The position numbers and the translations under genes are program-made. From NCBI GenBank assembly GCA_039594975.1, contig JBCNMJ010000001.1, forward strand, positions 20,402 to 84,401: DNA of 64,000 bases, written 5' to 3'. Numbering within the stretch: position 1 is the first letter of the stretch; each line of letters starts with the position of its first letter. The notes beneath the pieces were generated by a model that made no database searches, was not told the origin of the DNA, and was given only the letters and a program-made list of their open reading frames with translations. Below are positions 20,976-44,474 of the stretch, piece by piece. Source of the DNA: Chryseobacterium sp. (lineage in GTDB: Bacteria > Bacteroidota > Bacteroidia > Flavobacteriales > Weeksellaceae).

Positions 20976-21060
20976 GCCCCGATTGCAACGGCATCCTTTT
21001 TCTAAAATGGTTTGAAAAAAGCGCTGGCGAAAAAGATATAGTGGAAAGCGGGAAATAGCT
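20976..21060. repeat. Bacteroidota intergenic repeat element
   Basis: agccccgattgcaacggcatcctttt...aaaaagatatagtggaaagcggga with partly self-complementary ends; recognised from memory. Confidence 0.5.
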
Positions 21061-29353: not shown

Positions 29354-29902
29354 TTACTGCTGCAGGCACCAATGCAAAATTTTCGCGATATTTTTAGCAT
29401 CATCCACACCTCTGTGATGCGTACCTTCAAGCTTGAGATTCAGTTCACCCAAAGCTCTTGCCATACCTACACTTTTGCGAACCGTCGGATGCAATTCTCC
29501 GAATAAGGTTTTCACGTTGATATGGTCATCACTCAAAGGATAATCCACATGAAATCTTCTTGCCTGATTTTGAAGCATGTTCAGATCGTAGTTTCCGTAA
29601 CTCGCCCAGGTCAGTTCTTCAGAATCGTATTCTGCTCTCAGAATATCTAATGCATCTTCCAGTAAAATGCCTTCATCATCAAGCATTTTCTGGGTAATGG
29701 AAGTCAGTTCCGTACAAAAAGGACTTACTTTTGAATATTGAGGTTTTACTAAAATCCCTTCATTTTTGGAAATCTTACCGGTTTTTGCATCCATAATACA
29801 AACTCCGATTTCAATGATTTCACTTTCCTGGCCTCTCGGCGGCCGGTCTTCCCAACATGTGGCTTCGAGGTCTATAATTAATATATTGTCTGTTGTTTTC
29901 AC
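29354..29902 (-). CDS. DEDDh 3'-5' exonuclease (ERI-1/KapD-like), copy 2
   Basis: IIDLEATCWE, WASYGNYD, HHRGVDDA. Confidence 0.9.
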   Translation of the reverse strand: MKTTDNILIIDLEATCWEDRPPRGQESEIIEIGVCIMDAKTGKISKNEGILVKPQYSKVSPFCTELTSITQKMLDDEGILLEDALDILRAEYDSEELTWASYGNYDLNMLQNQARRFHVDYPLSDDHINVKTLFGELHPTVRKSVGMARALGELNLKLEGTHHRGVDDAKNIAKILHWCLQQ

Positions 29903-29927: not shown

Positions 29928-30473
29928 TTACCGCAAAATTTCTCTTAAAATCTTAGCGGCATTGTAAGCATCGTCTGCTCCACTGTGATGATTGCCTTCA
30001 AAGTTCATATTCAGAAACTTTAAAGCTCTTTTCAGGCCCATCATTTTATGAAGTCCGTTATAATTTTTAAACTGATGCATCACGTTGATATAATTTTCTG
30101 AAAAAGGATTTTCGATACCAAGATAATCACACTGCTCCATGATCTGTTCCTGATCAAAACTTCCGAAACCAGCCCAGGTAAGCCGCGAAGAATGGTATTC
30201 ATTCTTTATTTTCTCACAGGCTTCTTCGAAATAGATTCCTTTTTCTTCGATAAGTTGTGGAGTAATCCCGGTAAGATCTGTACAAAATCTACTGATCTTA
30301 GATCTTTCGGGAATTACATAGATACTTTGTTTCTTAGAAATTGCTTTTGTTGTTCTGTTTAATTCGCAAATTCCTATTTCTATGATATCGACTTTTTGCC
30401 CAACCGGAATCCTGTCGTTTTCCCAACATGTGGCTTCTAAATCGATGATTATTATTTCATTAGTTGTTTTCAT
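29928..30473 (-). CDS. DEDDh 3'-5' exonuclease (ERI-1/KapD-like), copy 1
   Basis: IIDLEATCWE, WAGFGSFD, HHSGADDA; likely start MKTTNE at 30473. Confidence 0.9.
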   Translation of the reverse strand: MKTTNEIIIIDLEATCWENDRIPVGQKVDIIEIGICELNRTTKAISKKQSIYVIPERSKISRFCTDLTGITPQLIEEKGIYFEEACEKIKNEYHSSRLTWAGFGSFDQEQIMEQCDYLGIENPFSENYINVMHQFKNYNGLHKMMGLKRALKFLNMNFEGNHHSGADDAYNAAKILREILR

Positions 30474-30586
30474 TTTGATTAATTTAATTCTACTTGTTTT
30501 CACTCATTGCATTGGGTTATTTTTGGTTGAAGGAGAATTAGGAAGAAGTTCTCTGAAGAAGAATTGACGTTGCTGATAAAGCTTTG

Positions 30587-30622
30587 CAAAGGTAAATCAG
30601 TAGTACGCATTCTATTTACACA
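30587..30622 (-). promoter_or_regulatory. Direct-repeat operator plus -7 box upstream of the exonuclease pair
   Basis: TGTGTA-N7-TGCGTA-N9-TACCTTTG on the minus strand. Confidence 0.75.
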
Positions 30623-30676
30623 GTTAAAATAATTTTCAAAATTTCTGTAATTTTTATTTTAATTCCATGCTAAAAC

Positions 30677-30754
30677 TGTCATTATGAATGTAACGAAGTG
30701 GAGTGAAGAATCTCTAATACCTAACGCCGAGATTCTTCCTTCGTCAGAATGACA
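30677..30754. repeat. REP-like palindromic repeat
   Basis: tgtcattatga...agaatctc...gagattct...cagaatgaca; same family as 22921-23019. Confidence 0.7.
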
Positions 30755-30830
30755 AACTTTCTGCACATTAAATCAAGAAATTTATGGTTCAATTTAACAT
30801 GTAAAAAAGTTTCGATAATAATTACCGAAA

Positions 30831-31847
30831 CTATACTTTTACTGTCATTAATTCTTCTTTTACCAGATCAATGACCAAAGAATTCAACTTTTTGTTGATC
30901 CTTTTATGTTCTTCTTTTTCTATGGTTGTGAAAACCTCAGGAAAATCTTTTTCAAAATCTTCTAAAATATCCTGTGCAAAAAGACCGATCACTTTTCCAA
31001 TCATTTTGGGTTCAAATTCCCCAATTTTGCTTACCACATTATTCAATCTGTTTATGGTTGCATATCTTTGAATTTCGTTCCAAATATCCTGAGCTTTTTC
31101 ACTAAAATTGATTTGCTTTTGAACCGGCTTATTCTGTTTTCTTACCACTTTAGATTTTTCAACCCATTTTTCATTTTTGTTTTTCAAAATGACTCTTGAG
31201 CCGTTTCCAAAATATTTGGTTTTCAAAGTTTTCACGATGGTTCCTTCGCACATATTGTTCTCGACTTCCGGTAATCCCAACCAATCCGGAATTTTAGAAT
31301 CGAAAACATTCGGAAACTTCAAAGCTTCTTCTAAAGTTCCCTGAAATAAGATCTTTGCATAGAAAAAACCGGTTTCCTCAAAAATTTGATTCACTAAATC
31401 CGTATCCAAATAAGTAATTCCGTTCAATTTGATGTCGAATGCGTAAAACTCGTTGTAAGGTGCATATTCAATACCTTTCTGCACCTTCACTGCATCTTTT
31501 ACAGCTTCGACTTCTTTGTGTTTGTAACCGCCACCGAATAATTCACCGTAAATTACCACAGTTTCAACATTGGGATACATTGTTTTCACTCTTCCGAAAA
31601 CTTCCATTACATTTTTTCTGTAACGTTCTAAAATCTGATGTGCATTGAAGAACTTTTCATTTTTTTCAATGAAAGCGGTCCTTTTTCCGATTTTAATTTC
31701 CTTTCCGTCAGTAAAGAAAGAGAAATTTGCCCCGTGAACCTTCTCCTGTACGATGAAAACCTCATTCCAAAAACCCTGCATCCTGATCTGATCGATCACG
31801 CGGGTCTGGTAAGCATTTTCTATAGAGTTATATGTTTTGAAAATCAT
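30831..31847 (-). CDS. RNA ligase, Rnl2 family
   Basis: FKTYNSIEN, EKVHGANFS (motif I), YGELFG, EGTIVK, ILKNKN. Confidence 0.92.
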   Translation of the reverse strand: MIFKTYNSIENAYQTRVIDQIRMQGFWNEVFIVQEKVHGANFSFFTDGKEIKIGKRTAFIEKNEKFFNAHQILERYRKNVMEVFGRVKTMYPNVETVVIYGELFGGGYKHKEVEAVKDAVKVQKGIEYAPYNEFYAFDIKLNGITYLDTDLVNQIFEETGFFYAKILFQGTLEEALKFPNVFDSKIPDWLGLPEVENNMCEGTIVKTLKTKYFGNGSRVILKNKNEKWVEKSKVVRKQNKPVQKQINFSEKAQDIWNEIQRYATINRLNNVVSKIGEFEPKMIGKVIGLFAQDILEDFEKDFPEVFTTIEKEEHKRINKKLNSLVIDLVKEELMTVKV

Positions 31848-31851
31848 TTCT

Positions 31852-32415
31852 TTAATTTTTAATAGTTTCTAATTCATTATTTTTCATCTGAGTAACGTGT
31901 CTCTGAGCATGGAGTGAAAGGAAATAAATGTATTCGTACACATTGATTTTCCCCAGTTCATTTACCGTCATGGTTGTTTTGCAGAGAAGACCTTCGCCAT
32001 TTTTCATCAAGTCTAAATAATTTAAACATTGATGATATTGTTGAGAGATTAAACTTCTGATTTCAGCTAAATTCAATTCTCCTTTCGGCTCCATATGTTC
32101 CGGTCTTATCCATTCGAAAGCTCCATATTCACCTACTTTTTCAAACTTTCCTTGATCGAAACTGTAATTTTCTATTTCAAGATGTAGATCAAGATTAAGA
32201 TAATTTCGCATTGCTTTTTTTGAGCCTTTTTCAATGAGAATCAACAAATAAAAGTTTGTGAGATAGATATGTTCTAAAATCTGCCGAATCGTCCAGCCTC
32301 CGTTTGAAGGCTGAAAATTCAATATTTCATTATCTTTATCAAACCATCTGTTGACCTCATCAAAACTGATTTTCAAATGCGTTTTTATATCCTGAATTAA
32401 TCTAAAAATGTCCAT
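31852..32415 (-). CDS. DinB-family protein
   Basis: GGWTIRQILEHI, LHAQRHVTQM. Confidence 0.85.
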   Translation of the reverse strand: MDIFRLIQDIKTHLKISFDEVNRWFDKDNEILNFQPSNGGWTIRQILEHIYLTNFYLLILIEKGSKKAMRNYLNLDLHLEIENYSFDQGKFEKVGEYGAFEWIRPEHMEPKGELNLAEIRSLISQQYHQCLNYLDLMKNGEGLLCKTTMTVNELGKINVYEYIYFLSLHAQRHVTQMKNNELETIKN

Positions 32416-32785
32416 TACAAATTTTTAAAGTTGTTTAAAAGTCCTTCAATATTCTCCTTTCCAACAGGATTCATGGAGTGGCAATAGAATTTTGGTAAGT
32501 CTAAGTAATTATCCATACAATATTCTACCAGCCATTTTGCGCAATCGTAGCCTGTCTTTTCAATAAATTCCTGAGAATTTGGTTTCAAATAGTGCTCATC
32601 AGCAAGGTCGTGGTCAAAAGAGATCATTTCCGGAAGTCCTTTTTCCAAAATCCTGTTGACAAACTGTTCGTAATTTCGAACGATATGCCAGTCTTTTCTG
32701 AGGAAAATATCCTGTTGGGTATAATGATACGCCTCAATCGGATATCTTATATCGTCCAGAAACAGTAATCTTTTGTGAGTTCCAT
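32415..32785 (-). pseudogene. Cyclic-phosphate-processing receiver-domain protein, frameshifted near the start
   Basis: LFLDDIRYP...ISFDHDL...HSMNPVG; ATG at 32785 is out of frame; restoring one A in the 32771-32774 run gives MELTKRLLFLDD. Confidence 0.7.
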
Positions 32786-32887
32786 TGCTTTAATTTATTT
32801 TTTTGGATAGAAATTGGAAGCTGGATGATGAAGTTAAATTCATACTGTAAAAAACTTCCATTTCCCATCGTTTTGCTTCCAGCTATT

Positions 32888-33373
32888 TTACACCATCATA
32901 TCAGCACAATTTGAACTTGCGAATGCATACGGTTTTGCTTTAAATACATATCCCATTCCCAGAATATATCCCATGGCATCTTTCAAAGCAACATTGGATT
33001 TGAAATCCGGGTCTGTGTTAATGTCTGCGTGCACCTCCATTTCCACCCCGTAAGCATCCAGAACAGAGCAGATAGCGTATGCAATTTCTACGGATTTGTT
33101 CACCTCGTTCAGCATTCGTTCTTTGATACTGATAGTCTGTATTTCTCTTTCTTTTCTGATAAAGGTAAACGCTCCTTTTCCCTCACGAATAAAGACAACT
33201 GCCGTTGCATAATTGATAGCATCCCCATACACATGGGAATCTGATCCCACACATACTTTCAGTCGGTGGCCGTTTGCCTGTTCGCGGATGATGGCTTCTT
33301 CTACCAATTGTGTGATAGATTGTTGGAAAATTTTTCCGGTCATGTTCTGCCATGTTTGCTGTTGCGTTTCCAT
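32888..33373 (-). CDS. RNase H-like YkuK/DUF458 protein
   Basis: VCVGSDSHV, RMLNEV, EVHADIN, YAFASS..AD. Confidence 0.85.
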   Translation of the reverse strand: METQQQTWQNMTGKIFQQSITQLVEEAIIREQANGHRLKVCVGSDSHVYGDAINYATAVVFIREGKGAFTFIRKEREIQTISIKERMLNEVNKSVEIAYAICSVLDAYGVEMEVHADINTDPDFKSNVALKDAMGYILGMGYVFKAKPYAFASSNCADMMV

Positions 33374-33394
33374 TTTTTTAAGTTTTTTGTAAAC

Positions 33395-33697
33395 CTATTT
33401 TCTCATTTTTTTAATAGTGTTTACAGGTTTTACATTTGTTTTCAAACTATCTTTCTTTGTCAATTTTTCAGTGAATTCCACAACATCTGCCACATCTTTA
33501 GTGGATTTTATTGCTTTTACGACACTGAAGCTATTTTCACCTTCTTTTTCTAATGCATTCGCATTTTTCAGGTATCTTGTTTCCATCAGCATAGGTTCAG
33601 AAATATGAGCAACCCGTGTACTTGTTTTTATACAGCTTCTGGCTATAGCGATGAAGGACATCATACCTACCAGAATCATTTTTATTGTATCTTTCAT
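33395..33697 (-). CDS. Small hypothetical protein with hydrophobic N-terminus
   Basis: 100 aa from MKDTIK; the longer ORF-track start lies inside tRNA-Gln. Confidence 0.5.
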   Translation of the reverse strand: MKDTIKMILVGMMSFIAIARSCIKTSTRVAHISEPMLMETRYLKNANALEKEGENSFSVVKAIKSTKDVADVVEFTEKLTKKDSLKTNVKPVNTIKKMRK

Positions 33698-33733
33698 GGT
33701 TATTGTTTTTTGGTTATTAGTATGATTTACGTG

Positions 33734-33806
33734 TTGATTCATCAGGATTCGAACCTGAACAACAAGAGTCAAAGTCTTGCGTGCTGACCAGTTACACTAT
33801 GAATCA
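33734..33806 (-). tRNA. tRNA-Gln(TTG)
   Basis: TGATTCA/TGAATCA acceptor; CAAGA-CTTTGAC-TCTTG; TTCGAAT T loop. Confidence 0.9.
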
Positions 33807-33810
33807 ATTT

Positions 33811-33890
33811 ATGAGTAATGAGTAATAGGTAATTAGTAATATTTTTTGCGCATAGTTTATTTCTTATTGCACATTACTTATTGCTCATAT
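33811..33890. repeat. agtaat/attact spacer hairpin (further copies about 33977-34064 and 34231-34340)
   Basis: Tandem agtaat(g) units facing inverted attact units between tRNA genes. Confidence 0.6.
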
Positions 33891-33894
33891 TCTG

Positions 33895-33967
33895 TGGAAC
33901 AGACAGGAATCGAACCTGTACCTTTAGTTTTTCAGACTAACGTGCAGACCTGCTACACCACTCTTCC
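33895..33967 (-). tRNA. tRNA-Phe(GAA)
   Basis: TTAGT-CTGAAAA-ACTAA; ACAGG-TTCGATT-CCTGT; one G-G mismatch in the acceptor stem. Confidence 0.88.
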
Positions 33968-34068
33968 AAGTTTTATAGGTAATGGGTAATTAGTAATATT
34001 AGAATCATACTTCATTATCTGCGTTCGCAACAATTACTCATTGCTGATTACTCATTACCCATATTTTG

Positions 34069-34142
34069 TACCTCTCCCCAGATTCGAACTGGGACTTTAC
34101 GGGGTTTAAAGCCGTTTTCTCTGCCAATTGGAATAGAGAGGC
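34069..34142 (-). tRNA. tRNA-Leu(TAA), short variable loop
   Basis: Leu-type D arm TTC-CAATTGGCAGA-GAA; ACGGC-TTTAAAC-CCCGT; 5-nt variable loop. Confidence 0.75.
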
Positions 34143-34149
34143 ATTGTTG

Positions 34150-34223
34150 TACGGAAAGAGGGATTCGAACCCCCAAAACCTTGAGCCTAAATCAAGTGTG
34201 TCTGCCATTTCCACCATTCCCGC
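34150..34223 (-). tRNA. tRNA-Leu(TAG), short variable loop
   Basis: GTG-GAAATGGCAGA-CAC; CTTGA-TTTAGGC-TCAAG; 5-nt variable loop. Confidence 0.88.
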
Positions 34224-34442
34224 AAGTTTTATAAGTAATGAGTAATTGGTAATCAGTAATAAAAAAGCATGCTTTATAAATTCATAATTGATTATAACCA
34301 TCACAATAATTACTCATTGCACATTACTTATTACTCATATTTTAGGTCTGAGAAGGCTTGTCTGATTATAAACTATGCCTGTAATGTTTTTTTGTAAAGA
34401 TCTTCTGCGCTCGACAAAACCTTCTCTTTCCCTTTTAATCTG

Positions 34443-34515
34443 TACTCTATAAGGGAATCGAACCCTTATTTTCTGCTCGAAAGGCAGACGTCCTGAACCG
34501 TTAGACGAATAGAGC
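34443..34515 (-). tRNA. tRNA-Glu(TTC)
   Basis: TCTGC-CTTTCGA-GCAGA; AAGGG-TTCGATT-CCCTT. Confidence 0.92.
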
Positions 34516-34608
34516 ATTATTTTCGTGAATTCTGAATTCTCAATTTGCTTTGCAGTCAATCTTTAAATTTTTAAATTAATAATTGACTTATTCCCCATTC
34601 ACTTTTTG

Positions 34609-34680
34609 ACCATCTGACCAGGAGTCGAACCTGAACAACAAGAGTACATTTCCTGCATGCTGCCATTACATTATCAGCGG
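34609..34680 (-). pseudogene. Degenerate tRNA, Gln-like body with TGT at the anticodon position
   Basis: 20 nt identical to tRNA-Gln 33734-33806; loop AATGTAC lacks U33; bulged acceptor stem. Confidence 0.65.
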
Positions 34681-34685
34681 TGTGG

Positions 34686-34769
34686 TGGAAGCAGTAGGAT
34701 TCGAACCTACTCAGCAATAAAGCAACAGATTTACAGTCTGCCCCGGCTCTCCAACTCCGGCGTACTTTC
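34686..34769 (-). tRNA. tRNA-Tyr(GTA)
   Basis: GCAGA-CTGTAAA-TCTGT; long variable arm; encoded CCA. Confidence 0.92.
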
Positions 34770-34951
34770 GGTTTTCATGAGTGATAAGTAATTGGTAATG
34801 AGTAATATTTTTAATAATCTTCCAATTCTTAATTTTTAATTTCTTGTGAAGAAAAACAAAGCCTGTCTTTAATTTTTTATTTGATGTAAGAACTTCTGCG
34901 CTCGACAGACTTTTTCTTTTTCTTCGGAACTCATCTCATTTTAGTTCTTTG

Positions 34952-35084
34952 AGATGGTTATGGGATTATTCATAACCATTTTATTTTTTTATTTGAATTC
35001 ACGAATGTTTCACATTTCAAAACCCACTCAGCTTATGCAACGGTTTTGCAGGCCGCCCCGACTCTTCCACTTCGGCGAACCATC
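34952..35084 (-). tRNA. tRNA-Cys(GCA) interrupted in the T loop
   Basis: GATGGTT/AACCATC acceptor, U73, GCGGC-CTGCAAA-ACCGT, long variable arm; 58 nt instead of 7 between the T-stem strands. Confidence 0.7.
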
Positions 35085-35290
35085 GTTTTTTTATTGGTTG
35101 TTGGTTGATCGTTTTTAGATAAAATCACATTTCTAATTTCTAATTAAAAAATAAAGCCTATCTTAATTTCTATCATTTATCTCAAATTGAGTTAAGAAAA
35201 AGTTTGTCTATATTATATCGTGTTTTTGGCGTAAAGATCTTCTGCTCTTGACAAACCTTCTTTTTCTCTTTTGAAACAATTAACTTAGTA

Positions 35291-35375
35291 TGAATAGTGA
35301 ATTGTCAATTCGCTTCGCTGGTCAATTTTTAAATTCACTTGTAAAACAAAATTCACAATTGACTATTCACATTTT
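35291..35375. repeat. About 85-bp palindromic spacer element (further copies 35676-35760 and 35848-35924)
   Basis: tgaat(a/g)gtgaattgtcaat...attcac(a/t)attgac(t/c)attca with terminal inverted repeats. Confidence 0.8.
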
Positions 35376-35377
35376 CG

Positions 35378-35449
35378 TCTGGAAAGCAAGATTCGAACTT
35401 GCGACCTCCCGCGTCCAAGACGGGTAAACAACCACCGTTATCTTTCCAG
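35378..35449 (-). tRNA. tRNA-Pro(TGG)
   Basis: CCCGT-CTTGGAC-GCGGG; GCAAG-TTCGAAT-CTTGC; atypical D arm. Confidence 0.85.
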
Positions 35450-35517
35450 TTTTGCAGATTCACTTCAATTTTCTTTTCCGAGAGACAGTCGGATTCGAAA
35501 TTTTCCGTAAATCTTTG

Positions 35518-35589
35518 CGGTCTATGCGAGAATCGAACTCGCAGTGCCCGAGAGACAGTCGGGAAGGTTAACCATTACCTCAATAGACC
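35518..35589 (-). tRNA. tRNA-Asp(GTC)
   Basis: GGTCTAT/ATAGACC, G73; CCCGA-CTGTCTC-TCGGG. Confidence 0.92.
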
Positions 35590-35594
35590 TTTTG

Positions 35595-35668
35595 TGATTC
35601 CGACAGGGATCGAACCTGTAACCCTGGATTTAGAAAACCCATGCTCTATCCAATTGAACTACGGAACC
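35595..35668 (-). tRNA. tRNA-Arg(TCT)
   Basis: TGGGT-TTTCTAA-ATCCA; ACAGG-TTCGATC-CCTGT. Confidence 0.92.
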
Positions 35669-35761
35669 TTTTACGTGAATGGTGAATTGTCAATCCGCTT
35701 TGCTGGTCAATTTTTAAACTCACTTGTGAAGCAAAATTCACTATTGACCATTCACATTTTG

Positions 35762-35835
35762 TAATCCCAGAAGGACTCGAACCTTCAACCTTCGACGTAT
35801 CAGGTCGACGCTCCAACCAATTGAGCTATGAGATT
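35762..35835 (-). tRNA. tRNA-Ile(GAT)
   Basis: TCGAC-CTGATAC-GTCGA; GAAGG-TTCGAGT-CCTTC. Confidence 0.92.
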
Positions 35836-35925
35836 GTATTTTTGTTGTGAACGGTCAATTGTCAATTCGCTTTGCTTGTCAATTTACTTGTGAAACAAAA
35901 TTCACTATTGACCATTCATATTTTG

Positions 35926-35997
35926 GGTATCTCCGGGGATCGAACCCTGTTCTTCGGTTCCACAGACCGACGCTTTACCAAATAAGCTAGAGAAACC
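35926..35997 (-). tRNA. tRNA-His(GTG)
   Basis: G-1 and C73; TCGGT-CTGTGGA-ACCGA; T arm appears one nt short. Confidence 0.85.
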
Positions 35998-35999
35998 AT

Positions 36000-36030
36000 A
36001 AAAAAAGCGCCTCTTTTCGGGAGGCGCTTT
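36000..36030 (-). terminator. Attenuator terminator immediately upstream of the tRNA array
   Basis: aaagcgcctc-ccgaaaa-gaggcgcttt followed by a U tract ending 2 nt before tRNA-His. Confidence 0.85.
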
Positions 36031-36053
36031 ATATTTTTAGACGTGTCAGTTCA

Positions 36054-36191
36054 TTAGCTGACCCATGTATATAAGCACCTTTTTTCCCAAAATTCACTAT
36101 CAAGAAGAATAATATAAGCATATCCCTGCCCCTTCGGCTCTTGCCCATGTAATCTTGAATGTGGATTAGATATGTTATTAAATTGTTTCAT
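36054..36191 (-). CDS. 45-aa leader peptide of the tRNA/RNA-repair operon
   Basis: MKQFNNISNPHSRLHGQEPKGQGYAYIILLDSEFWEKRCLYTWVS; its 3' codons are complementary to the terminator 5' arm. Confidence 0.65.
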   Translation of the reverse strand: MKQFNNISNPHSRLHGQEPKGQGYAYIILLDSEFWEKRCLYTWVS

Positions 36192-36516
36192 TTTATTTCT
36201 TGTTTTAAAAAGTTCTTTTGAAAGGCTTGAAAACTTGTTGCTTTCAATTTTCGGTTGCAAAGTAAGGATGAAATTTTTTAACTCGCAAATTTATTTTTCA
36301 ATTAACTATTTGATAATCAATAAATTAAATCTAATTTTCAGAATAGAAAATTTCTGTCCGCAATACTTTGCAGATACCTTAAATACCTAAATGACTGTCT
36401 CTCATCGGGTTATTGATCACGCTCTATTTCTTTATTAATTGTTCATTTGTTATTAAATAATTTTCATTTTTATGGTTATTTTTTTTCATTCTAAATAATT
36501 TCTGCTCTAAAAACAC

Positions 36517-36546
36517 AAAAAACGCCCCGAAAATCGAGGCGTTCTT
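36517..36546 (-). terminator. Intrinsic terminator after the second leader ORF
   Basis: aagaacgcctcg-atttt-cggggcgtttttt on the minus strand. Confidence 0.75.
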
Positions 36547-36775: not shown

Positions 36776-36867
36776 AGATGCTTCGACTTCGCTCAGCATG
36801 ACATTTTTTCTAATACTAAATGAATTAATTTTGTAACGGTGTCATGCTGAACGAAGCTGAAGCATCT
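36776..36867. repeat. REP-like inverted repeat
   Basis: agatgcttcg..ttcgctcagcatgaca ... tgtcatgctgaacgaa..gaagcatct. Confidence 0.7.
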
Positions 36868-36900: not shown

Positions 36901-37920
36901 TCAATTCCTAAACATCTTATTTCTTCCTGTCTTATACCTCGAAATATCTTTCAAAATAATCTCATCATCGGGATTGAAATGTTTCAGTTCATTTACAATT
37001 TCGGAACGGCTGTTGATGTTTTCAGCAATAATGCTGTAAGCAATCTCCCTTGTAGATTTCCGTAGCCGCTGATCTTTTTTAAATTCAATTTTCATCACTT
37101 CCAGATAGATCAGTTTTTTATCCAAAGGAGTTTCTATATACAAATGCTGAATCTCTTTTTCCAGTGTATTGATTTCAGAAATATTTGAAAAATAAGTATT
37201 AAGGCTATTAAGAGCTTCTTTATTTTCTCTCCAGCCTTGAAGCAAAACCTTTTGAGCCTTTTCCGGGGATTCCATTTTGTTTCGGTATATCAAAGATGCT
37301 TTTACCATCTGATGACTCTGTATATAATCATCAACTACCATCTGATAAAATACAAGCGCATTCTCAAGATCGTTGATCTCTTTATATAAGTCTCCGACTT
37401 TTTCTTTTTGCTGAAGCTCCTTATATAGTGTAATGGCTTTATCATATTGTTTTGCTTTCACATAACAATTGGCAGCATCTACTTTACTTTGTACTTTTTT
37501 AAGAAAAACAACGGCGGCTTCATTATAAAATCCTCCTTGCTCCAGCGTTGAAGCAGCACGATAATTATCTTTTAAGAGGTTCATATAAACGATAGCAGCT
37601 TTTTTATATTCACCATCCTCTATATGCTTTCTGGCAATGTCTTCATACATGCTTCTAAGTTTATCAAACAAAGAAGTATCTATATAAGAACCACTTCCTC
37701 CATAATTTTTTCTTGCCGGCGGTTGCGGATCTTTTTCCTGATTCTGAAGAATAACAATAAGCACGATGGCAATGGCGGCAAAGAATATAAACTTGAATAC
37801 ACTTCCCAAAATATTTTCCAGATTCATTCTGGATGATTGGGCAATAATAGCAATTACCTTAAAAATCACGAGAATAAAAAAGGCCGTCAGAAACTTTTCT
37901 AAGAACTTTTGCTTTCTCAT
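36901..37920 (-). CDS. TPR-containing component of the MoxR-vWA (bpX-type) system
   Basis: Two N-terminal TM segments; TPR-like repeats (YKKAAIVY, AANCY, KVGDLY). Confidence 0.7.
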   Translation of the reverse strand: MRKQKFLEKFLTAFFILVIFKVIAIIAQSSRMNLENILGSVFKFIFFAAIAIVLIVILQNQEKDPQPPARKNYGGSGSYIDTSLFDKLRSMYEDIARKHIEDGEYKKAAIVYMNLLKDNYRAASTLEQGGFYNEAAVVFLKKVQSKVDAANCYVKAKQYDKAITLYKELQQKEKVGDLYKEINDLENALVFYQMVVDDYIQSHQMVKASLIYRNKMESPEKAQKVLLQGWRENKEALNSLNTYFSNISEINTLEKEIQHLYIETPLDKKLIYLEVMKIEFKKDQRLRKSTREIAYSIIAENINSRSEIVNELKHFNPDDEIILKDISRYKTGRNKMFRN

Positions 37921-39602
37921 TTTTTCCCTGGTTTTAAAATGTTGTCATCTTCACTAAATAAACGGTACAGGAGAATGACCACTCCTATTATCAACAGCCA
38001 TACCAGCCAATTGTATCCGAAAGAATTGATAAGCGGATAGAAAATATACAGTAAGGTAACAACTAAAATGGCGATCAAAATCAGTTTGATTCCGTCTGAC
38101 ACATATTTCCCTCCCATGTATAAAGGCTTTTTTCGCACAAAATATGAATAGAATGCCATTATTCCGACAGCAGCAAGTAATAACCAAACCACTTCTGAAA
38201 TTGAAATCTCCTTTTTCACACGGATATCCTGTGCAGCATTCAAAGCATCTTTTCCTGCATTTTCATTAAACATGATTTGAGGATCTGTTTCATGGGAAGT
38301 TCCATAAATTCTGGCCAGGGAATCTCTGAGTAGTCTTTTCCTGATTTCCAGAACATCATCTGCATACAACATCTTTGATCCTTCGGACATTTTGCTTGAA
38401 GAATCTTTCATGATAGAATCCAGGATTTTTTTATGATAATTCTTTGTCTTGATCTCTACGACCTGATCTATTTTTTTCAGGTACATTTTTTTCAATGAGT
38501 CCCGGAACTTTTTCTCTTTGACCCTATACTTTTCAATCTGCCACAGCATTTCCGCTTTTCCCTCTTTGGTGTTGGCAGCCCGCTTGTAATCACTGATCAG
38601 CCAACTTCTCTCATTTCCAAATAAAGAGTCTACTTTTCTGTCGATATCCGTAAATCCGGATTCGAACACCAAGCCTTCTTCGTTTTCTGTATGAGAGTTT
38701 TTTCCAATGGTATTTTCACTGTACGAATCTGCAGAGAGTTCCTGTTCTTGTCTTGCCTGATTTCTCCCAAAATCAATTGCAAAAATAATAATCACGATAA
38801 TGGCTAGAAAAAGAGCAAAGCCCTTCTGTTTACCAGTCATTTTACCTATTGGATTAGTTTCTCCCGAAGTGTTTTCATTGTTTCCTCCTAAACTTCCAAA
38901 CATTCCCCAATCAAAATTTCCGAAACCGCCTCGTAAAGCAGAATGAATATCTAACGGAATTCCCAGATAAACGGCACGTTCAGGATATTTTTTTAAATAT
39001 TCGATGTATTTCAAAATTTCATTCTGATCTCCTGCTTTTAATTTTTCCATATCAAATGGTAGATTTTTCATCCATTCTTCATCGGTTATAGGATTCAGAA
39101 GATCATTCAGTAGTTCATCATCATTCATATCCACTTTATAACTTCGGATCTTTTGCGGAATGAAAACTCCGTTTGAAGGCTTTTTGACTTTGGCTTCTGT
39201 TTGAGGAGATTCCTGTAACAATAAGACCCAATCTATTGCTTCATTTAATTTCACCAAACCGAAATCAGGATGCATAATGATATATTTTGCATCTATATTT
39301 TTCCAGTCATCAGAAGTTATTTTAGGATAAAAATCTGTATTTTCAGGAATAAACAATTTACTGTCAAAGTATTGAAAATATGAGTTCTTACCGATTTGTT
39401 CCGGCGCATATCCTTCAAAAACAATGAAACAACCGTAAAGAAGATTCGGCTCAAGAGAAGGAATGGCAAATGACTGTACTGCATTAAGATCTATTTCCAG
39501 CAATTCTATTTCGCGAAACCATACCAAAGGTGAAGCGCCTCTAATGAGAAGCCCTCTTTTGGGATAACTATTTTTCGGAAACGGCCTAATCTTCAACTCC
39601 AT
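37917..39602 (-). CDS. bpX-type domain plus membrane-anchored component
   Basis: Overlapping start/stop with neighbours; one central and three C-terminal TM segments. Confidence 0.6.
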   Translation of the reverse strand: MELKIRPFPKNSYPKRGLLIRGASPLVWFREIELLEIDLNAVQSFAIPSLEPNLLYGCFIVFEGYAPEQIGKNSYFQYFDSKLFIPENTDFYPKITSDDWKNIDAKYIIMHPDFGLVKLNEAIDWVLLLQESPQTEAKVKKPSNGVFIPQKIRSYKVDMNDDELLNDLLNPITDEEWMKNLPFDMEKLKAGDQNEILKYIEYLKKYPERAVYLGIPLDIHSALRGGFGNFDWGMFGSLGGNNENTSGETNPIGKMTGKQKGFALFLAIIVIIIFAIDFGRNQARQEQELSADSYSENTIGKNSHTENEEGLVFESGFTDIDRKVDSLFGNERSWLISDYKRAANTKEGKAEMLWQIEKYRVKEKKFRDSLKKMYLKKIDQVVEIKTKNYHKKILDSIMKDSSSKMSEGSKMLYADDVLEIRKRLLRDSLARIYGTSHETDPQIMFNENAGKDALNAAQDIRVKKEISISEVVWLLLAAVGIMAFYSYFVRKKPLYMGGKYVSDGIKLILIAILVVTLLYIFYPLINSFGYNWLVWLLIIGVVILLYRLFSEDDNILKPGKK

Positions 39603-41982
39603 ATTCCAATACTTGATCTATAAAAGGTTGTAAGTAATCTTCACACATTTCTTTAAGCGTTCTCACTTTAAGCAAAGTATGATCCGGTAAAAAATATTCT
39701 GCTCCCCCAAATTCTGTCTCTGTAGCCAATGCCATGACAGTATTTACAGTAGTCGACATATAAAATTCCGGAATATGACCATTCATACTTCTGAAAGTGA
39801 GCATTCCACGGGAATCCGCAATGATTTCGCTTCCGTCTGAAAATGTAAATTTATTTTTATTCTGATGTGCCACTACAAAGAACGGAGATTGGTTTTTAAA
39901 TAAATAAATAGTGGCGCCCCAGATACTCAGTTCATTTTTAGAAACGACCAGATTACGATTTTCATTAATGCCGATATGGATAAAATTACTGATAAATTTA
40001 TAACTGTTATGCTGGAGTTTCTCGACCTCAATTTTTACTTTTTCTATATTTTTAGCAATTTCAGGATCATTTTTCACAATTTCTAAAGAAACCTCACCTT
40101 CCAGATTGATCTCAAAAATGGTTGGTAAACTACTTTGATGCAGGTAAAAATGTCTGTTAAAATATACCAGCTCCATATTCAGCGGGACCTCAAAACCGGA
40201 TACATTCAGTTCAGAATATTCTTTTGTTTCAATATTAAGTTTTGAAACCAGGCTTTTATCCGGCCGATACTGGCACAGAATAAATTGTTGCTGCTTATTT
40301 TTAGCTAGGGCAAATATTCCTTTATCCTTTACAGAAATCCCTTCAAACAAAACTTCACAGCCCCTCAAGGTACTGTATATGCTATAGTAATTCTTGTTAT
40401 AATAATTATCCGAGAGATAAGTTCTCAACAATTGTTTTTTACTGCTTAGAATAAAAAATTCCCCTTCATACATAAACTTCGCAATTTTCTGCTGCGGAGT
40501 TGGAAAAAGCAAAGGATAATTGAGAGGAACATCTGTTTTCCCGCCTTTAGTACTCTGGCTGATTGTTCTTTTAGCTTTTCTATACGGAGGATCCTCCCAA
40601 AGTTCTTTCAACGGAAGCAGAATTTTTTGGATATGTTTTCTTGCTCCTAAATGATGTTTATAAAAATTAAGTTCTCCATCGGCAGAGGTGGTTACTAAAA
40701 ATTTTAACCGGTTTCTGTTTTCATGAATGACTTTCTGAAGATTTTCATTGGCTAAATTTTCATGATTGGTGATAAAGAACACTTCTATATCTTTTTCTGA
40801 ACGTTCTTTTTTGAAAAATAAATCTAAAGTTTCCGAAACATCCAATGTTCCGCTTACCAGATTCAGGTTTTCAATGACATCTTCCACCCGATCCAGTGTC
40901 ATCACAATACTGGATTGTCCTAAAGCATAGACTTTACACTCAGAGTGCGCTTTCGGGTGTTTGATAACGGCTAGTGCTGAAGCAAAAGACAAGACTTTGG
41001 GAGTTCCCCAGTTTTTCAGGGAAGTATCTATAAGGATAATTCTTTCGAAAACATTTTCTTCCGGCGGTATTTCCCTTTGGATATATAAAGCTTCATTATT
41101 GGCTACCCGGTTCATAAAAACCTCATCTTCATTCGCAAATTCCGACAGCAGCATTCTGTGGAGATCTCCTTTATTCGCAATATCTGAAACTCCACCAATC
41201 GGCTGTTCTCCTGGAGAAAGATGCCGCATCGGGATTTTAAGTCCGCTCCAGATCCTTTTAATTAAACTTCCTACCTGAAATGTTTTAGGTTCTTCAATTA
41301 GCTCCTGAATAAAATCTTTTTCAGGTTCTGTATTAGTTTTTTCTTCAGTTATTTCTTCTTTTATTTCCAGCTCACCCACCCAACCCTGCATGGCTTTTAT
41401 AATGGATTCAGTAGTTGGAAATTTATTGTAAACCCTTGATAATGCCTCAATATCTTTATAGAACACATCATGGGTAAGCAATAATTTATGGGCTGCATCG
41501 CCAATTTTTTGTGGACCTCTGTAATAGGTGGTCAAAATATATTCAGATTCTTCTGCAGAAAGCGAGTAAACCGAATCTTTAAAAAGAGTCTGAAAAAGAT
41601 TGATCCTGTTTTGTCCTTTCTTCATTGAGACACCAACTTTACTAAGATTTTCCAGCAGCTGACAGGCGTTTGCAATATCAAGATTGAAGGTACTTGTTTC
41701 CTCTGTTCTTAATTTTCTCAAAAAGTAGAAAATACCGTCAAGATTGAGATAGCCTTCCTGAGTTGCATACATTGTAAGAAGAAAAGCACCGAAAGGTGGG
41801 AAACCCTCCGGCTGAAGTTCTTTCAAAACTTCAATGATATAAGGTCTGTAAGCAATTACCCCTACATTCGGAACGGAGACTAGATTATTCTCAAGATATC
41901 CGGAAGGATCACGAACATCCTTATCTGTGATCCATTCCCAGAAATAATTTTCGTACGATTGAAAATAACTTACTAAATCCAT
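39586..41982 (-). CDS. bpX0-like plus vWA plus beta-rich C-terminal component
   Basis: GFPPFGAFLL; GDLHRMLLSEFA...EALY typical of MoxR-associated vWA; IILIDTS. Confidence 0.7.
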   Translation of the reverse strand: MDLVSYFQSYENYFWEWITDKDVRDPSGYLENNLVSVPNVGVIAYRPYIIEVLKELQPEGFPPFGAFLLTMYATQEGYLNLDGIFYFLRKLRTEETSTFNLDIANACQLLENLSKVGVSMKKGQNRINLFQTLFKDSVYSLSAEESEYILTTYYRGPQKIGDAAHKLLLTHDVFYKDIEALSRVYNKFPTTESIIKAMQGWVGELEIKEEITEEKTNTEPEKDFIQELIEEPKTFQVGSLIKRIWSGLKIPMRHLSPGEQPIGGVSDIANKGDLHRMLLSEFANEDEVFMNRVANNEALYIQREIPPEENVFERIILIDTSLKNWGTPKVLSFASALAVIKHPKAHSECKVYALGQSSIVMTLDRVEDVIENLNLVSGTLDVSETLDLFFKKERSEKDIEVFFITNHENLANENLQKVIHENRNRLKFLVTTSADGELNFYKHHLGARKHIQKILLPLKELWEDPPYRKAKRTISQSTKGGKTDVPLNYPLLFPTPQQKIAKFMYEGEFFILSSKKQLLRTYLSDNYYNKNYYSIYSTLRGCEVLFEGISVKDKGIFALAKNKQQQFILCQYRPDKSLVSKLNIETKEYSELNVSGFEVPLNMELVYFNRHFYLHQSSLPTIFEINLEGEVSLEIVKNDPEIAKNIEKVKIEVEKLQHNSYKFISNFIHIGINENRNLVVSKNELSIWGATIYLFKNQSPFFVVAHQNKNKFTFSDGSEIIADSRGMLTFRSMNGHIPEFYMSTTVNTVMALATETEFGGAEYFLPDHTLLKVRTLKEMCEDYLQPFIDQVLEYGVED

Positions 41983-42716
41983 TCTCTAGCTTTTTGAGTC
42001 AGACGGAAAGAGCTTACGGATAAGATTCTGAAATCATCTTTATTTATAGGTAAATAACTTCCGTTTTCATCCCATAGCAACCATTTATCGGACTCTATGT
42101 TATATTTTTTCTGTAGTAATGAGCTTACGTTTTTAAATTCAAAATCATATCCGCTCGGCAAAAGATGATGATCCTTTATCCAAAAAGTTTTTCCAGGAAA
42201 GCTTAATAAAGGAGTGCCAAGAAATAAAGCCTTATCATCCACAGTCATCCATTGTAATTTTTCCAGTTTAAATTTCGGAATCTCTATGATCTTATCTTTA
42301 ATATCATCAATGGAACATAAAAGTGCAGCAGCAGGAAATTCATGCTCTCCTTTTTTAAGATGCACTTCAATCTTTTCATCAACTCCAAAAAAATTATGAT
42401 TGGACGGAGGAAGGGATAATTTCAATGCCTTATCAATGGGTGACCAAAGTAAAGCCGTTCTTACTTTCTTACTTGGAACCAAAGCATTCCTTCTGAATAA
42501 AAGCCCGTTCTTTAGTTCATATATGATAAAATTAGGGAGTTTCTTAACTTCTGATGAAACTGCCTGTTCAAGACTAAAGCCTTTTAACCAAATACGATCA
42601 TCATCTGCCGCGATCTGAATATTTTTCCAGTCGCGGACAGCTCCTAAAGCGTATTCATCTTTTCGAGGAATTTCTGCCCAAAATTCTTTTAAGCGCTCTG
42701 AAGAATCTTCTGCCAT
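41973..42716 (-). CDS. bpX2-like component
   Basis: LGAVRDW..IWLKG and LFLGTPLLSFPG; position next to MoxR. Confidence 0.6.
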   Translation of the reverse strand: MAEDSSERLKEFWAEIPRKDEYALGAVRDWKNIQIAADDDRIWLKGFSLEQAVSSEVKKLPNFIIYELKNGLLFRRNALVPSKKVRTALLWSPIDKALKLSLPPSNHNFFGVDEKIEVHLKKGEHEFPAAALLCSIDDIKDKIIEIPKFKLEKLQWMTVDDKALFLGTPLLSFPGKTFWIKDHHLLPSGYDFEFKNVSSLLQKKYNIESDKWLLWDENGSYLPINKDDFRILSVSSFRLTQKAREWI

Positions 42717-43822: not shown

Positions 43823-44474
43823 TATGATCCGTATTATTTATTTTTAATTCTTTCCAGAAAGCATTTTTATACCATCCGAATTCTGCAGTCAATAATTTAT
43901 GGATATAAGGAATTTCCGCCAATCTGTATATTTTATTGTCTACAATTCTTTCAAGATAAAGTTTTCTGTAGGTTGTATCTTTCAGCTCTTCCTCCCATTT
44001 CAGATGTTCCAATTCTATATCTGCTTCAATTCCGGAATAGTGGAATTGTTTTAAAATCGTTTCAAGTAATACAATCAAAGGGTCATCTGCATCTACATTT
44101 TTCAAAGCGACCACAATCTGTGGTAAAAACCTCAATGAAAGATCTGCGGATAGCTTTGCAGAAAGGTCAAACTTTCCTTTAAACTCAGGAATCAGTTTTG
44201 CAAGATCTTTTTCCGTATTTTCCCGAACAAGATAAAGCTGAACACTATGATAAAGGATTTTTGCCGCCCAAACTGCTGCTGCTTTATCAAACGGAATCTG
44301 ATCAGATAAGAACTCCAGTCTTTCTTTTTCAAATTCGGTTTCAAAATATTCTGCCGCTTCCTGTTCCTCTTTTAATGAAATTTGTTTTACATCCGCAAAA
44401 ATGGTGATGCATTCTTCTTGCCGGAGCAGAAATAAAGTAGCTAAAAATGGTGATCTGGTTTCCATCATAAACAA
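43806..44474 (-). CDS. bpX4-like component
   Basis: SADLSLRFLP motif, YLERI; first gene of the operon. Confidence 0.65.
   Translation of the reverse strand: MFMMETRSPFLATLFLLRQEECITIFADVKQISLKEEQEAAEYFETEFEKERLEFLSDQIPFDKAAAVWAAKILYHSVQLYLVRENTEKDLAKLIPEFKGKFDLSAKLSADLSLRFLPQIVVALKNVDADDPLIVLLETILKQFHYSGIEADIELEHLKWEEELKDTTYRKLYLERIVDNKIYRLAEIPYIHKLLTAEFGWYKNAFWKELKINNTDHNDSKY

Follow-up and report, generated by a model that had tools for sequence, protein, structure and literature searches.

Phage T4 sets Pnkp and the ligases Rnl1 and Rnl2 against the anticodon nuclease PrrC, and T5-like phages carry tRNA arrays that escape anticodon nucleases. The attenuators of amino-acid operons (the trp, his, leu and phe leaders) combine a leader open reading frame (ORF), a terminator and an exclusive upstream pairing. 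RNA-repair genes are said, in the abstract of a 2016 survey by Burroughs and Aravind, to obey a 'syntax' in which analogous modules are displaced between relatives. Among cellular systems there is the tRNA L-array of Anabaena, which is induced by translational stress, has 23 of its 26 tRNAs charged and is co-regulated with rtcB (PMC8421152), and which is repressed by the protein TrcR acting on direct repeats (PMC10272220). RtcB–PrfH pairs are known (bioRxiv 10.1101/2025.01.09.632186), and cRec, a cyclic-phosphate-processing protein of receiver fold, is a predicted 2',3'-cyclic-phosphate phosphoesterase whose linkage to RNA ligases was noted earlier (PMC7824862). Here we set beside these systems a locus in a 64 000-nucleotide (nt) stretch of a Chryseobacterium sp. 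genome (contig JBCNMJ010000001.1, positions 20 402–84 401; this whole stretch is referred to below as the window, and coordinates are given in its own numbering). In it, an array of tRNA genes is followed on the same strand by a gene for a YkuK/DUF458 RNase H-like protein and by genes related to RNA repair, including one for an Rnl2-family RNA ligase (Table 1). It is very probable that the locus represents a conserved operon that joins functional supplementary tRNAs to RNA-repair enzymes.

To follow the locus across the Flavobacteriales, we collected 79 loci around Rnl2 homologues in reference genomes and 80 around YkuK homologues in metagenomes, and the linkage of array and YkuK was counted over the 145 YkuK loci with enough upstream sequence. 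At least four same-strand tRNA genes were present within 4 kb upstream of the YkuK gene in 142 of the 145, and in the same 142 a tRNA gene ended within 450 nt of it. The pairing holds both in Chryseobacterium, where practically all species sampled have the array in one and the same chromosomal position, and in distant marine Flavobacteriaceae, whose YkuK and Rnl2 orthologues are, respectively, 65–66% and 47–48% identical to those of the window. Two sub-orders, Asn-Cys-Tyr and Leu-Leu..Gln..Phe, are common to Chryseobacterium and marine arrays, from which it follows that the arrays of the two lineages are homologous. To judge from these comparisons, the array looks to have been vertically inherited within the Flavobacteriales rather than sporadically distributed in the manner expected of horizontal gene transfer (HGT), with an ancient transfer possible. 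A phage origin was considered and rejected, a megablast search of the locus against phage genomes being empty; a sensitive blastn search of phage genomes gave single-tRNA similarities of 75–85% only, with no match at the level of the array, and no YkuK relatives were found in viral contigs.

The company kept by the array and YkuK is more variable. In Chryseobacterium the consensus operon reads [tRNAs]-YkuK-(ATP-grasp)-cRec-(DinB)-Rnl2-metallophosphoesterase-Exo1-Exo2-(Band-7), and over the 145 loci we found cRec in 111, Rnl2 in 102, a calcineurin-like phosphoesterase in 96 and DinB in 64, with DEDD exonucleases kept at this position in 119. RtcB occurs in five marine loci, and in three metagenomic loci (L148–L150) the order is simply [tRNAs]-YkuK-RtcB, so that RtcB takes the place of Rnl2. 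A metallophosphoesterase is found instead of cRec in marine loci, and AlkB-like, PrfH, RlaP and Band-7 proteins vary from locus to locus, the nucleotidyltransferase RlaP being found only in some of the marine ones. Thus, Winogradskyella (L077) has RlaP-RtcB-PrfH-like-TPR-phosphoesterase-[14 tRNAs]-YkuK-Rnl2-tRNA-Tyr-like gene-Band-7-RtcB, and Psychroserpens (L076) has an AlkB-like oxygenase between YkuK and Rnl2. An earlier note on this DNA, made from the letters of the window, had tied the array to RNA-repair genes; the tie is borne out by the constancy of the array–YkuK pairing, around which ligases and healing enzymes have been exchanged between lineages.

Two side observations on these loci may be recorded here. 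In the metagenomic loci L156 and L157, which are exceptions to the linkage, YkuK is 63% identical to that of the window and there are no tRNA genes within 8 kb. Some marine loci contain non-coding stretches with weak tRNA-like matches (L077, 11000–12840; L153, 9281–9440; L154, 10010–10073; L155, 3388–3682), and these, like the tRNA-Tyr-like gene, sit just upstream of Band-7/SPFH genes; about 0.8 kb of the stretch in L077 matched no Rfam family. We presume that they may correspond to the Band-7-associated tRNA-like RNA to which the abstract of Burroughs and Aravind's survey alludes.

Do the genes of the array still specify tRNAs that work? In a sample of 1016 array tRNAs from the collected loci, at least 98.5% of pairs were canonical in every family and the cloverleaf was kept, and within a single genus between one and 14 pairs per family showed compensatory double changes (14 of 23 pairs in Arg-TCT, 13 of 21 in Arg-ACG and 10 of 20 in Trp). 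T-loops are canonical in most families, and discriminator bases match bacterial identity rules (G73 in Asn, Asp, Trp and Ser, U73 in Cys, C73 in His). The canonical pairing, compensatory changes, T-loops and discriminator bases all point to functional RNAs, and on this comparative evidence the array tRNAs are under purifying selection on their structure.

Several families are of unusual form. The array tRNA-Leu species (TAG and TAA) are only 74–76 nt long and have a Leu-type D-arm with a variable loop of just 4–5 nt. The array tRNA-Cys, a paralogue of the neighbouring tRNA-Tyr, with which it shares C8, is 83 nt long and has a long variable arm and the T-loop TTTGAAT. Position 37 is U in Asp and in one of the two Glu copies, and A in Pro, in which a single nucleotide separates the acceptor and D stems. 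Most of the genes have the 3' trailer N73-CAAA, and it is chiefly the Tyr genes and a part of the Leu-TAG genes that encode CCA. The Ile-GAT, Lys-TTT, Arg-ACG, Met-CAT and Asn-GTT genes of the collected loci (L001–L159) are close paralogues: Ile, Lys and Arg-ACG have in common an unusual A1-U72 acceptor stem (AATCTCA...), and Met and Asn start with G1. One position in the array is occupied by Ile-GAT in some species and by Met-CAT in others, an alternation which, with the close paralogy, points to anticodon switching within the array through duplication and anticodon change. The relatives' arrays carry between six and 21 tRNA genes and are very variable in content from one species to the next, genes having been gained, lost or turned into pseudogenes. 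Those of Chryseobacterium consist mainly of split-box tRNAs with G34 or U34, and are without Ala, Gly, Val and Thr, and marine arrays include Gly, Val, Ala and Ser tRNAs.

The best clue to regulation is a leader-peptide/terminator switch upstream of tRNA-His, which the earlier note had missed (as it had the two DEDD exonuclease genes and the separateness of a neighbouring ternary system, to which we return below). In 122 Chryseobacterium loci the leader ORF always starts with ATG and has 38–45 codons, its frame being kept through in-frame indels, and its product has a conserved C-terminus, DSEF..KRCLY.WVS. Upstream of it, and downstream of the strong terminator (36518–36546) of the preceding TPR gene, there is a promoter-like block that matches the consensus and is conserved in the examples aligned; in 73 of the 122 loci the motif TAnnTTTG precedes the leader ATG by about 100 nt. 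The intrinsic terminator, which more than 93 of 110 loci possess, is situated about 20–26 nt after the leader stop codon and 3–28 nt before the first tRNA (3–5 nt in Chryseobacterium), a gap which leaves no room for a promoter, so expression of the array requires read-through. Of the cells in the terminator alignment, 97.3% are paired, and one pair is compensated (G-C in 54, A-U in eight and G-U in seven); the observed covariation score was reached by none of 500 shuffles.

A second pairing could compete with the terminator. Region 2 of the leader, which spans the K-R-C-L-Y codons, hardly varies in its nucleotide sequence, synonymous sites included, and is complementary to region 3 (97.5% of cells paired across Chryseobacterium loci). 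In the window the unconstrained minimum free energy fold of the leader already adopts the pairing of regions 2 and 3, and the antiterminator fold has an energy of –17.5 kcal/mol (with the 3' arm of the terminator blocked), against –15.9 kcal/mol for the terminator alone. Six of eight marine loci likewise have an ORF of 40–43 codons, with a terminator 22–26 nt past its stop codon and the first tRNA 12–28 nt further on, and constrained folds in both lineages give the succession of region 2, a hairpin that encloses the ORF stop codon, and region 3. The two partners change together between lineages: region 2 and region 3 (the 5' arm of the terminator) contain AGGTGC and GCGCCT in Chryseobacterium, GGAAGG and CCTTCC in L076, L077, L152 and L154, and AAGGAGA and TCTCCTT in L153 and L155. 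From these alignments and folds, we infer that leader and terminator constitute a ribosome-mediated attenuator.

Once polymerase has entered the array, there is little to stop it before the end of the ligase gene. The earlier note supposed that array and repair genes were co-transcribed, and held that strong terminators between them would speak against this. On the minus strand from tRNA-His to the Rnl2 stop codon we found no terminator other than a weak hairpin (31312–31341), which is inside the Rnl2 coding sequence and is without a clean T-run. The gap between the last tRNA and the YkuK gene is 33–130 nt in most loci and 33–34 nt in the marine ones; the latter distance leaves no room for a promoter, so that YkuK expression needs read-through from the array. 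Spacing of this kind makes the conclusion that array and YkuK gene are co-transcribed in the relatives close to forced. Contigs from a soil metatranscriptome cover Exo2, Exo1, Rnl2, YkuK, the intergenic stretch between tRNA and YkuK, and one inter-tRNA spacer, and are compatible with transcription through the junctions, or with carry-over of DNA.

Table 1. Features of the locus, from upstream to downstream on the minus strand (window coordinates)
Feature	Position	Strand	Basis or remark
MoxR-vWA-beta-propeller ternary system (bpX4, bpMoxR, bpX2, bpX0/bpX1, bpX3, TM+TPR third component)	36901-44474	-	domain scans
Promoter-like region, TAAATTTG (36286-36293) and TTACTTTG (36258-36265)	36258-36293	-	Bacteroidetes-type -33/-7-like motifs
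Leader ORF, 45 codons, MKQFNNISNPHSRLHGQEPKGQGYAYIILLDSEFWEKRCLYTWVS then stop	36053-36190	-	conserved in 122 loci
Attenuator region 2, AGGTGCTTATA (K-R-C-L-Y codons)	36069-36080	-	pairs with region 3
Attenuator region 3	36022-36034	-	overlaps terminator 5' arm
Intrinsic terminator, AAAGCGCCTC-CCGAAAA-GAGGCGCTTT and T-run	36004-36030	-	ends 5 nt before tRNA-His
tRNA-His-GTG	35925-35997	-	ARAGORN and Rfam
Spacer element A, palindrome of about 85 nt with TTGACA-like motifs	35291-35375, 35676-35760, 35847-35925		
tRNA-Ile-GAT	35761-35835	-	ARAGORN and Rfam
tRNA-Arg-TCT	35594-35668	-	ARAGORN and Rfam
tRNA-Asp-GTC	35517-35589	-	ARAGORN and Rfam
tRNA-Pro-TGG	35377-35449	-	ARAGORN and Rfam
Spacer element C, three copies	34360-34440, 34850-34930, 35195-35275	-	hairpin of about 80 nt
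tRNA-Cys-GCA pseudogene, class-II shape, T-loop interrupted	34951-35084	-	alignment to genus-consensus tRNA-Cys
Spacer element B, run of GTAATNN heptads	33807-34343, 34770-34815		
tRNA-Tyr-GTA	34683-34769	-	ARAGORN and Rfam
Thr-like (Thr-TGT) sub-threshold tRNA-like gene	34610-34680	-	Rfam 28.3 bits; ARAGORN at lowered threshold
tRNA-Glu-TTC	34442-34515	-	ARAGORN and Rfam
tRNA-Leu-TAG	34149-34223	-	ARAGORN and Rfam
tRNA-Leu-TAA	34068-34142	-	ARAGORN and Rfam
tRNA-Phe-GAA	33894-33967	-	ARAGORN and Rfam
tRNA-Gln-TTG	33733-33806	-	ARAGORN and Rfam
100-codon ORF, strain-specific	33395-33697	-	occupies tRNA-Trp place of other species
YkuK/DUF458 RNase H-like protein	32888-33373	-	PF04308, E=3e-31, 108.5 bits (cutoff 25)
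cRec (cyclic-phosphate-processing receiver-fold) gene, frameshifted	32415-32785	-	PF20274 (cREC_REC)
DinB_2 superfamily protein	31852-32415	-	PF12867, E=2e-10
Rnl2-family ATP-dependent RNA ligase	30831-31847	-	TIGR02307, PF09414, PF18043
Terminator-like hairpin right after Rnl2 stop	30808-30832	-	terminator scan
Exo1, DEDDh (RNase T/KapD-like) 3'-5' exonuclease	29928-30503	-	PF00929
Exo2, DEDDh (RNase T/KapD-like) 3'-5' exonuclease	29354-29902	-	PF00929

In the window itself, 11 tRNA genes, on which ARAGORN and Rfam agree, and two decayed ones occupy about 2.3 kb of the minus strand (33733–35997). The 13 tRNA-like genes of the earlier note were thus recovered in the order in which it gave them, the pseudogene and the interrupted Cys included, and its remarks that only Tyr encodes CCA and that several stems have mismatches agree with the tRNA structures. 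Neither the window nor any of the collected loci contains a housekeeping tRNA gene. The tRNA-Cys gene matches the genus consensus over its 5' 65 nt and its 3' 18 nt, between which the T-loop is interrupted by an insertion of about 54 nt (34966–35019) that contigs of related strains skip exactly; it gave no Rfam tRNA match even at E≤1. The Thr-like gene, whose score on the Rfam tRNA model compares with a gathering score of 29, is 71 nt long and begins 2 nt past the CCA of Tyr. Its anticodon loop is AATGTAC, with A33 instead of U33, and it was called in 30 other arrays, in many species, with AATATAC as a variant loop. The 3' half of this gene is similar to tRNA-Gln, and A33 violates a near-universal rule of tRNAs. 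The spacer 3' of tRNA-Asp holds, at 35470–35500 (minus strand), an isolated second copy of the anticodon stem-loop of that tRNA (CCGACTGTCTCTCGG), which is likely to be the remnant of a partial duplication.

As to the protein genes on the same strand downstream of the array, the earlier note had listed a small ORF and genes for YkuK, a receiver-domain protein, DinB and Rnl2. YkuK, DinB and Rnl2 stand as read; the receiver domain is that of a frameshifted cRec, and the small ORF is peculiar to this strain. This 100-codon ORF, which has no Pfam match, was matched in only two of the 79 reference-genome loci and in the metagenome locus L151, and replaces tRNA-Trp, and we rejected it as a component of the system. 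In YkuK, residues D45, H115 and D117 are invariant among 35 diverse members of the family and E90 is nearly so. A sequence search of the PDB with YkuK found no match, and an AlphaFold2 model (predicted local distance difference test score 93.6) has RNase H1, NurA and EndoV as its best PDB neighbours, the similarities being weak (TM score ≤0.43). The cRec gene has suffered a –1 frameshift in a run of A residues (32771–32774), with four As against five in all 17 orthologues checked, which read ATG..ACAAAAAGA and have a complete domain. In the window the Pfam match is limited to profile positions 32–88, the C-terminal two thirds, and the segment KRLLFLDDIR is in frame yet separated from the ATG by the frameshift; contigs of run X1 carry the same frameshift sequence. 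The gene is either a pseudogene or expressed only via slippage.

The start codon of the DinB gene overlaps the stop codon of cRec (TAATG), and 4 nt separate DinB from Rnl2. The ligase scores 209.2 bits on TIGR02307 (equivalog cutoff 197.15), has motif I as EKVHGAN at residues 35–41, and has orthologues of at least 83% identity in more than 100 Chryseobacterium entries. Between Rnl2 and Exo1 there is a gap of 327 nt (30504–30830), which in most relatives is the site of the calcineurin-like metallophosphoesterase gene; the gene has been lost here. For Exo1 and Exo2 the nearest NCBIfam model is KapD, the scores being below its cutoff. A PADLOC scan for known defence systems found nothing but a generic DEDDh match. 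Where the earlier note saw no healing enzyme in the window, its statement holds for polynucleotide kinase, no kinase domain being found in Pfam scans of the genes of the window and of L076 and L077, and none in any locus examined; it does not hold for phosphoesterases, as cRec, frameshifted in the window, is a predicted one and the genus consensus adds one of calcineurin type, lost from the window.

The spacers of the array contain repeats of their own. In the hairpin formed by element C, the 5' strand is rich in purines and the 3' strand in pyrimidines, and the apex carries an invariant GAGCGCAGAAGATCTTTAC, within which lies the palindrome AAGATCTT. Of 146 Chryseobacterium arrays, 123 have the element, with 309 copies in total; every copy is on the sense strand, and arrays are the only places where it was found. 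Its sites are fixed (ahead of Cys, ahead of Tyr, and from Glu to Leu), and its stem co-varies. The palindromic elements A and B are, within the window, confined to the array. Spacers in marine arrays are 2–10 nt long and contain none of these elements, which are therefore additions of the Chryseobacterium lineage. Rfam recognized no family but tRNA in the spacers (element C included), the leader or the marine islands.

Upstream of the array on the same strand lie the genes of a complete MoxR-vWA-beta-propeller ternary system, of a kind described as enigmatic and as having no conventional effector, with no mention of a link to tRNA or RNA repair (PMC7159879, Kaur et al. 2020). It has this position in 106 of the 145 loci, all of them in Chryseobacterium, and is absent from marine loci, and two strong terminators and the promoter-like region separate it from the array. 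Caution is therefore needed in reading anything into the adjacency: on this arrangement, the ternary system is probably a separate transcription unit, independent of the array. The TPR protein nearest to the array was considered as a part of the tRNA module and rejected; it agrees with what is described as the third component of such systems (PMC7159879) and has no similarity to the short TPR proteins encoded upstream of marine arrays. An inverted repeat (36776–36867; 28-nt arms, 89% complementary, with a 36-nt loop) lies between the TPR gene, which it directly follows, and the terminator of that gene. Elsewhere in the window, a Flavo-1 RNA (RF01705, 63.6 bits, Rfam) at 20971–21059 on the plus strand serves as a taxonomic marker and is unrelated to the array.

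How might such an operon work? From gene content and order, selection on the tRNAs, the terminator and the conserved leader, we infer an attenuation logic, an induction signal, charging of the tRNAs, roles for the enzymes and a threat, as follows. Transcription would start at the operon's own promoter, some 60–100 nt upstream of the leader ORF of 38–45 codons. When the leader is translated briskly, ribosomes would cover region 2 and the stop-codon hairpin, the terminator would form and transcription would end; when ribosomes are slow or stalled, through loss of tRNAs, damage to ribosomes or inhibitors, region 2 would be free to pair with the 5' arm of the terminator, and polymerase would continue through the array into the YkuK, cRec, DinB and Rnl2 genes. 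The array tRNAs would then be processed, tailed with CCA, charged and used as replacements, and the agent that damages the housekeeping tRNAs, whatever it is, may act poorly on them because of their altered shapes and anticodon loops. Meanwhile, cRec or the metallophosphoesterase is predicted to clear 2',3'-cyclic or 3'-phosphate ends, the DEDD exonucleases to trim CAAA trailers or damaged 3' ends, and Rnl2 (RtcB in some relatives) to reseal broken RNA. YkuK, as a putative nuclease, may have either the precursor of the array or damaged RNA as its substrate. Enzymes of RNase H-like fold leave 3'-OH and 5'-P ends; we may speculate that ends of this kind, if made by YkuK, would be fit for sealing by Rnl2, which could be the reason why a kinase is missing.

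Different parts of this scheme deserve different degrees of belief. That there is one operon in the Flavobacteriales providing supplementary tRNAs together with enzymes for the healing, trimming and sealing of RNA ends, and that it comes on when translation falters, is the reading that we favour as probable. Its control by the leader/terminator switch, with translational stress as inducer, we regard as having the balance slightly on its side. That its purpose is the replacement and repair of tRNAs damaged by the nucleases of phages or competitors is an attractive suggestion, to which we would stop a little short of committing ourselves; the anticodon nucleases named by the earlier note would be a conjectural threat of this kind. 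More tentatively still, and with appreciable doubt, it can be imagined as an emergency operon whose attenuator reads the global speed of ribosomes, and which answers a collapse brought about, for instance, by tRNA- or rRNA-cleaving toxins of phages or competitors with re-shaped escape tRNAs and, from the same transcript, a kinase-independent repair in which YkuK would make or tidy 3'-OH/5'-P ends, the DEDD exonucleases would trim and Rnl2 would seal; the arm-less Leu, the long-armed Cys, the altered positions 8, 37 and 73–76, and the anticodon-switched paralogues would then be features of escape.

Several observations weigh against the favoured reading in whole or in part. Classical anticodon nucleases leave 5'-OH ends, and with no polynucleotide kinase at the locus these could be sealed by Rnl2 only if some other kinase acted on them. 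The unusual U37 of Asp and Glu, A37 of Pro, C8 of Tyr and Cys, and A33 of the Thr-like gene could mean poor decoding. Distant YkuK relatives (40–46% identity) are not beside tRNA genes, so the linkage is specific to the Flavobacteriales subfamily, and we rejected it as a general property of the YkuK family. Compared with the genus consensus, the copy in the window is without the metallophosphoesterase gene and tRNA-Lys, Asn, Met/Ile and Trp, its cRec gene is frameshifted, its Cys gene interrupted and its Thr-like gene below threshold; by this comparison the copy of this strain is partly eroded, which implies that the system may be dispensable here. With regard to the leader, the excess of variation at third codon positions is modest (summed entropies 14.7, 14.65 and 17.8). 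The antiterminator shows no covariation within Chryseobacterium, as follows from the invariance of region 2; in the marine loci, shuffles reach the observed value 46–83% of the time, so that this control does not discriminate, and the antiterminator sequesters only 4–9 bases of the 5' arm of the terminator. The idea that the leader is tuned to the array tRNAs was rejected, because codons that the array can read make up 54% of the leader against 50% of neighbouring genes; the sensor, if real, would thus be a general one, of overall translation speed. As to expression, the runs guessed to be RNA hold contigs of up to 110 kb and must therefore include DNA, and the soil metatranscriptome contigs, which are near-identical to the strain, are short and of low depth, with carry-over of DNA possible.

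Other interpretations of the locus can be offered. The array might be a cryptic L-array, brought in by HGT and tolerated, with the adjacency of repair genes no more than inherited synteny. L-arrays have indeed been described as HGT-borne, supernumerary and mostly silent (PMC8421152), and the fluidity of array content between species and the decay of the copy in the window would fit with this. It does not account for the survival of the array–YkuK pairing at 47% identity in Rnl2 while other partners are replaced, for spacing too tight for independent promoters, for purifying selection and compensatory change in the tRNAs, or for a regulatory leader conserved in both lineages; moreover, the GC content of the locus (0.33–0.39) equals that of its flanks, in a genome of about 35% GC, and there are no integrase or phage genes among the annotated neighbours of the array. 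We therefore consider it improbable. A similarly low standing attaches to the proposal that the array RNAs serve as decoys, sponges or sources of signals (bait for tRNA-targeting toxins, or precursors of fragments that switch on the repair response) and are cleaved by YkuK. U37, A37, A33 and C8, the class-switched Leu and Cys, CAAA in place of CCA, and an RNase H-like nuclease as the invariant partner would all be in keeping with such a role, and fragments of damaged tRNAs reportedly regulate the rtcBA operon of Salmonella (work of Hughes and colleagues in 2020). Varied anticodons and discriminators that match identity rules would be needless in decoys, acceptor stems and T-loops are conserved, and in the analogous Anabaena array 23 of 26 tRNAs are aminoacylated in vivo (PMC8421152).

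Two further possibilities seem to us more remote than either of these. If the effector of the adjacent ternary system damaged tRNAs, as in abortive infection, the array and repair genes could be its recovery or immunity arm, an idea encouraged by the position of that system directly upstream on the same strand in the 106 loci mentioned above and by the lack of a conventional effector in its description (PMC7159879). The adjacency is, however, seen in a single genus; in marine loci the array, YkuK and repair genes are retained where the ternary system is absent; two strong terminators and a promoter-like region intervene; and in that description of the system tRNA and RNA repair are not linked to it. 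Together these points leave the idea very improbable. Hardly more credible is a role in codon usage, in which the array would boost or re-balance the tRNA pool for A/U-rich split-box codons in certain conditions of growth and RNA damage would have no part. The predominance of split-box tRNAs (G34/U34) in Chryseobacterium arrays, the absence of Ala, Gly, Val and Thr, and a genome of about 35% GC are what one might expect of such an adaptation; but it leaves unexplained the invariant YkuK, the interchangeable ligases and phosphoesterases, the AlkB-like, PrfH and Band-7 proteins, and the structural oddities of the tRNAs, and marine arrays do have Gly, Val, Ala and Ser. A replace-and-repair operon held in check by an attenuator remains the interpretation to which we return.

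If that interpretation is true, the locus would be, within the literature searched, the first case in cellular genomes of a physical fusion between a tRNA operon and RNA-repair enzymes. It would parallel in cells the replace-and-repair strategy of phages, and would show as physical linkage what in cyanobacteria is seen as co-regulation. In a full-text search of the literature, whose reach did not extend to Burroughs & Aravind (2016), we found no description of a fusion of a tRNA array with genes for YkuK and RNA repair, of leader-peptide attenuation of a tRNA operon, or of class-switched Leu and Cys tRNAs. The attenuator would report general translational health rather than the supply of one amino acid, and could explain how cryptic arrays can be silent and yet useful. 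The locus also suggests a function for YkuK/DUF458 and could help in testing the predicted function of cRec. Lastly, the arrays offer a naturally occurring set of tRNAs (Leu, Cys) in which the class I/class II shape rules are broken and the identity nucleotides kept, and such tRNAs would be useful in studies of synthetase recognition and of resistance to tRNases.

How, then, does the locus compare with the systems with which we began? The L-array of cyanobacteria (the trn operon of Anabaena sp. PCC 7120) resembles it in being a long same-strand array, pseudogenes included, in its tie to RNA repair (rtcB is co-regulated, and is adjacent in some species) and, if our reading of the leader is correct, in responding to impaired translation. 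The two differ in their apparent regulation, by the TrcR repressor there and by a leader-peptide terminator/antiterminator here; in their associated genes, an HNH endonuclease and dpsA being linked to the cyanobacterial array, whereas here repair genes are in the operon itself, with YkuK invariant and Rnl2 or RtcB as ligase; and in their distribution, which is sporadic there and genus-wide by inheritance here. With the tRNA sets and repair enzymes of phages the locus shares an Rnl2-family ligase and would share the principle of replacing cleaved tRNAs by variants while healing and sealing broken ones, but it is chromosomal and has no polynucleotide kinase, its healing enzymes being cRec and the calcineurin-like phosphoesterase. 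Modular RNA-repair operons (RtcBA, Pnkp/Hen1, RtcB-PrfH, Band-7/Rot) are alike in combining a ligase with phosphoesterases and accessory proteins, and in the free displacement of modules. They differ in that here an array of 6–21 tRNA genes and YkuK form a fixed core with a putative attenuator in front, and in that kinase and methylase are missing here, with the RlaP nucleotidyltransferase present in some marine loci only. Finally, the attenuators of amino-acid operons have the same elements of a short ORF and an intrinsic terminator, and a mutually exclusive pairing that involves the end of the ORF, which here is putative; here, in contrast, the putative attenuator precedes a tRNA/RNA-repair operon, its leader contains no run of a single codon, and the stop codon is placed within the apical hairpin of the putative antiterminator.

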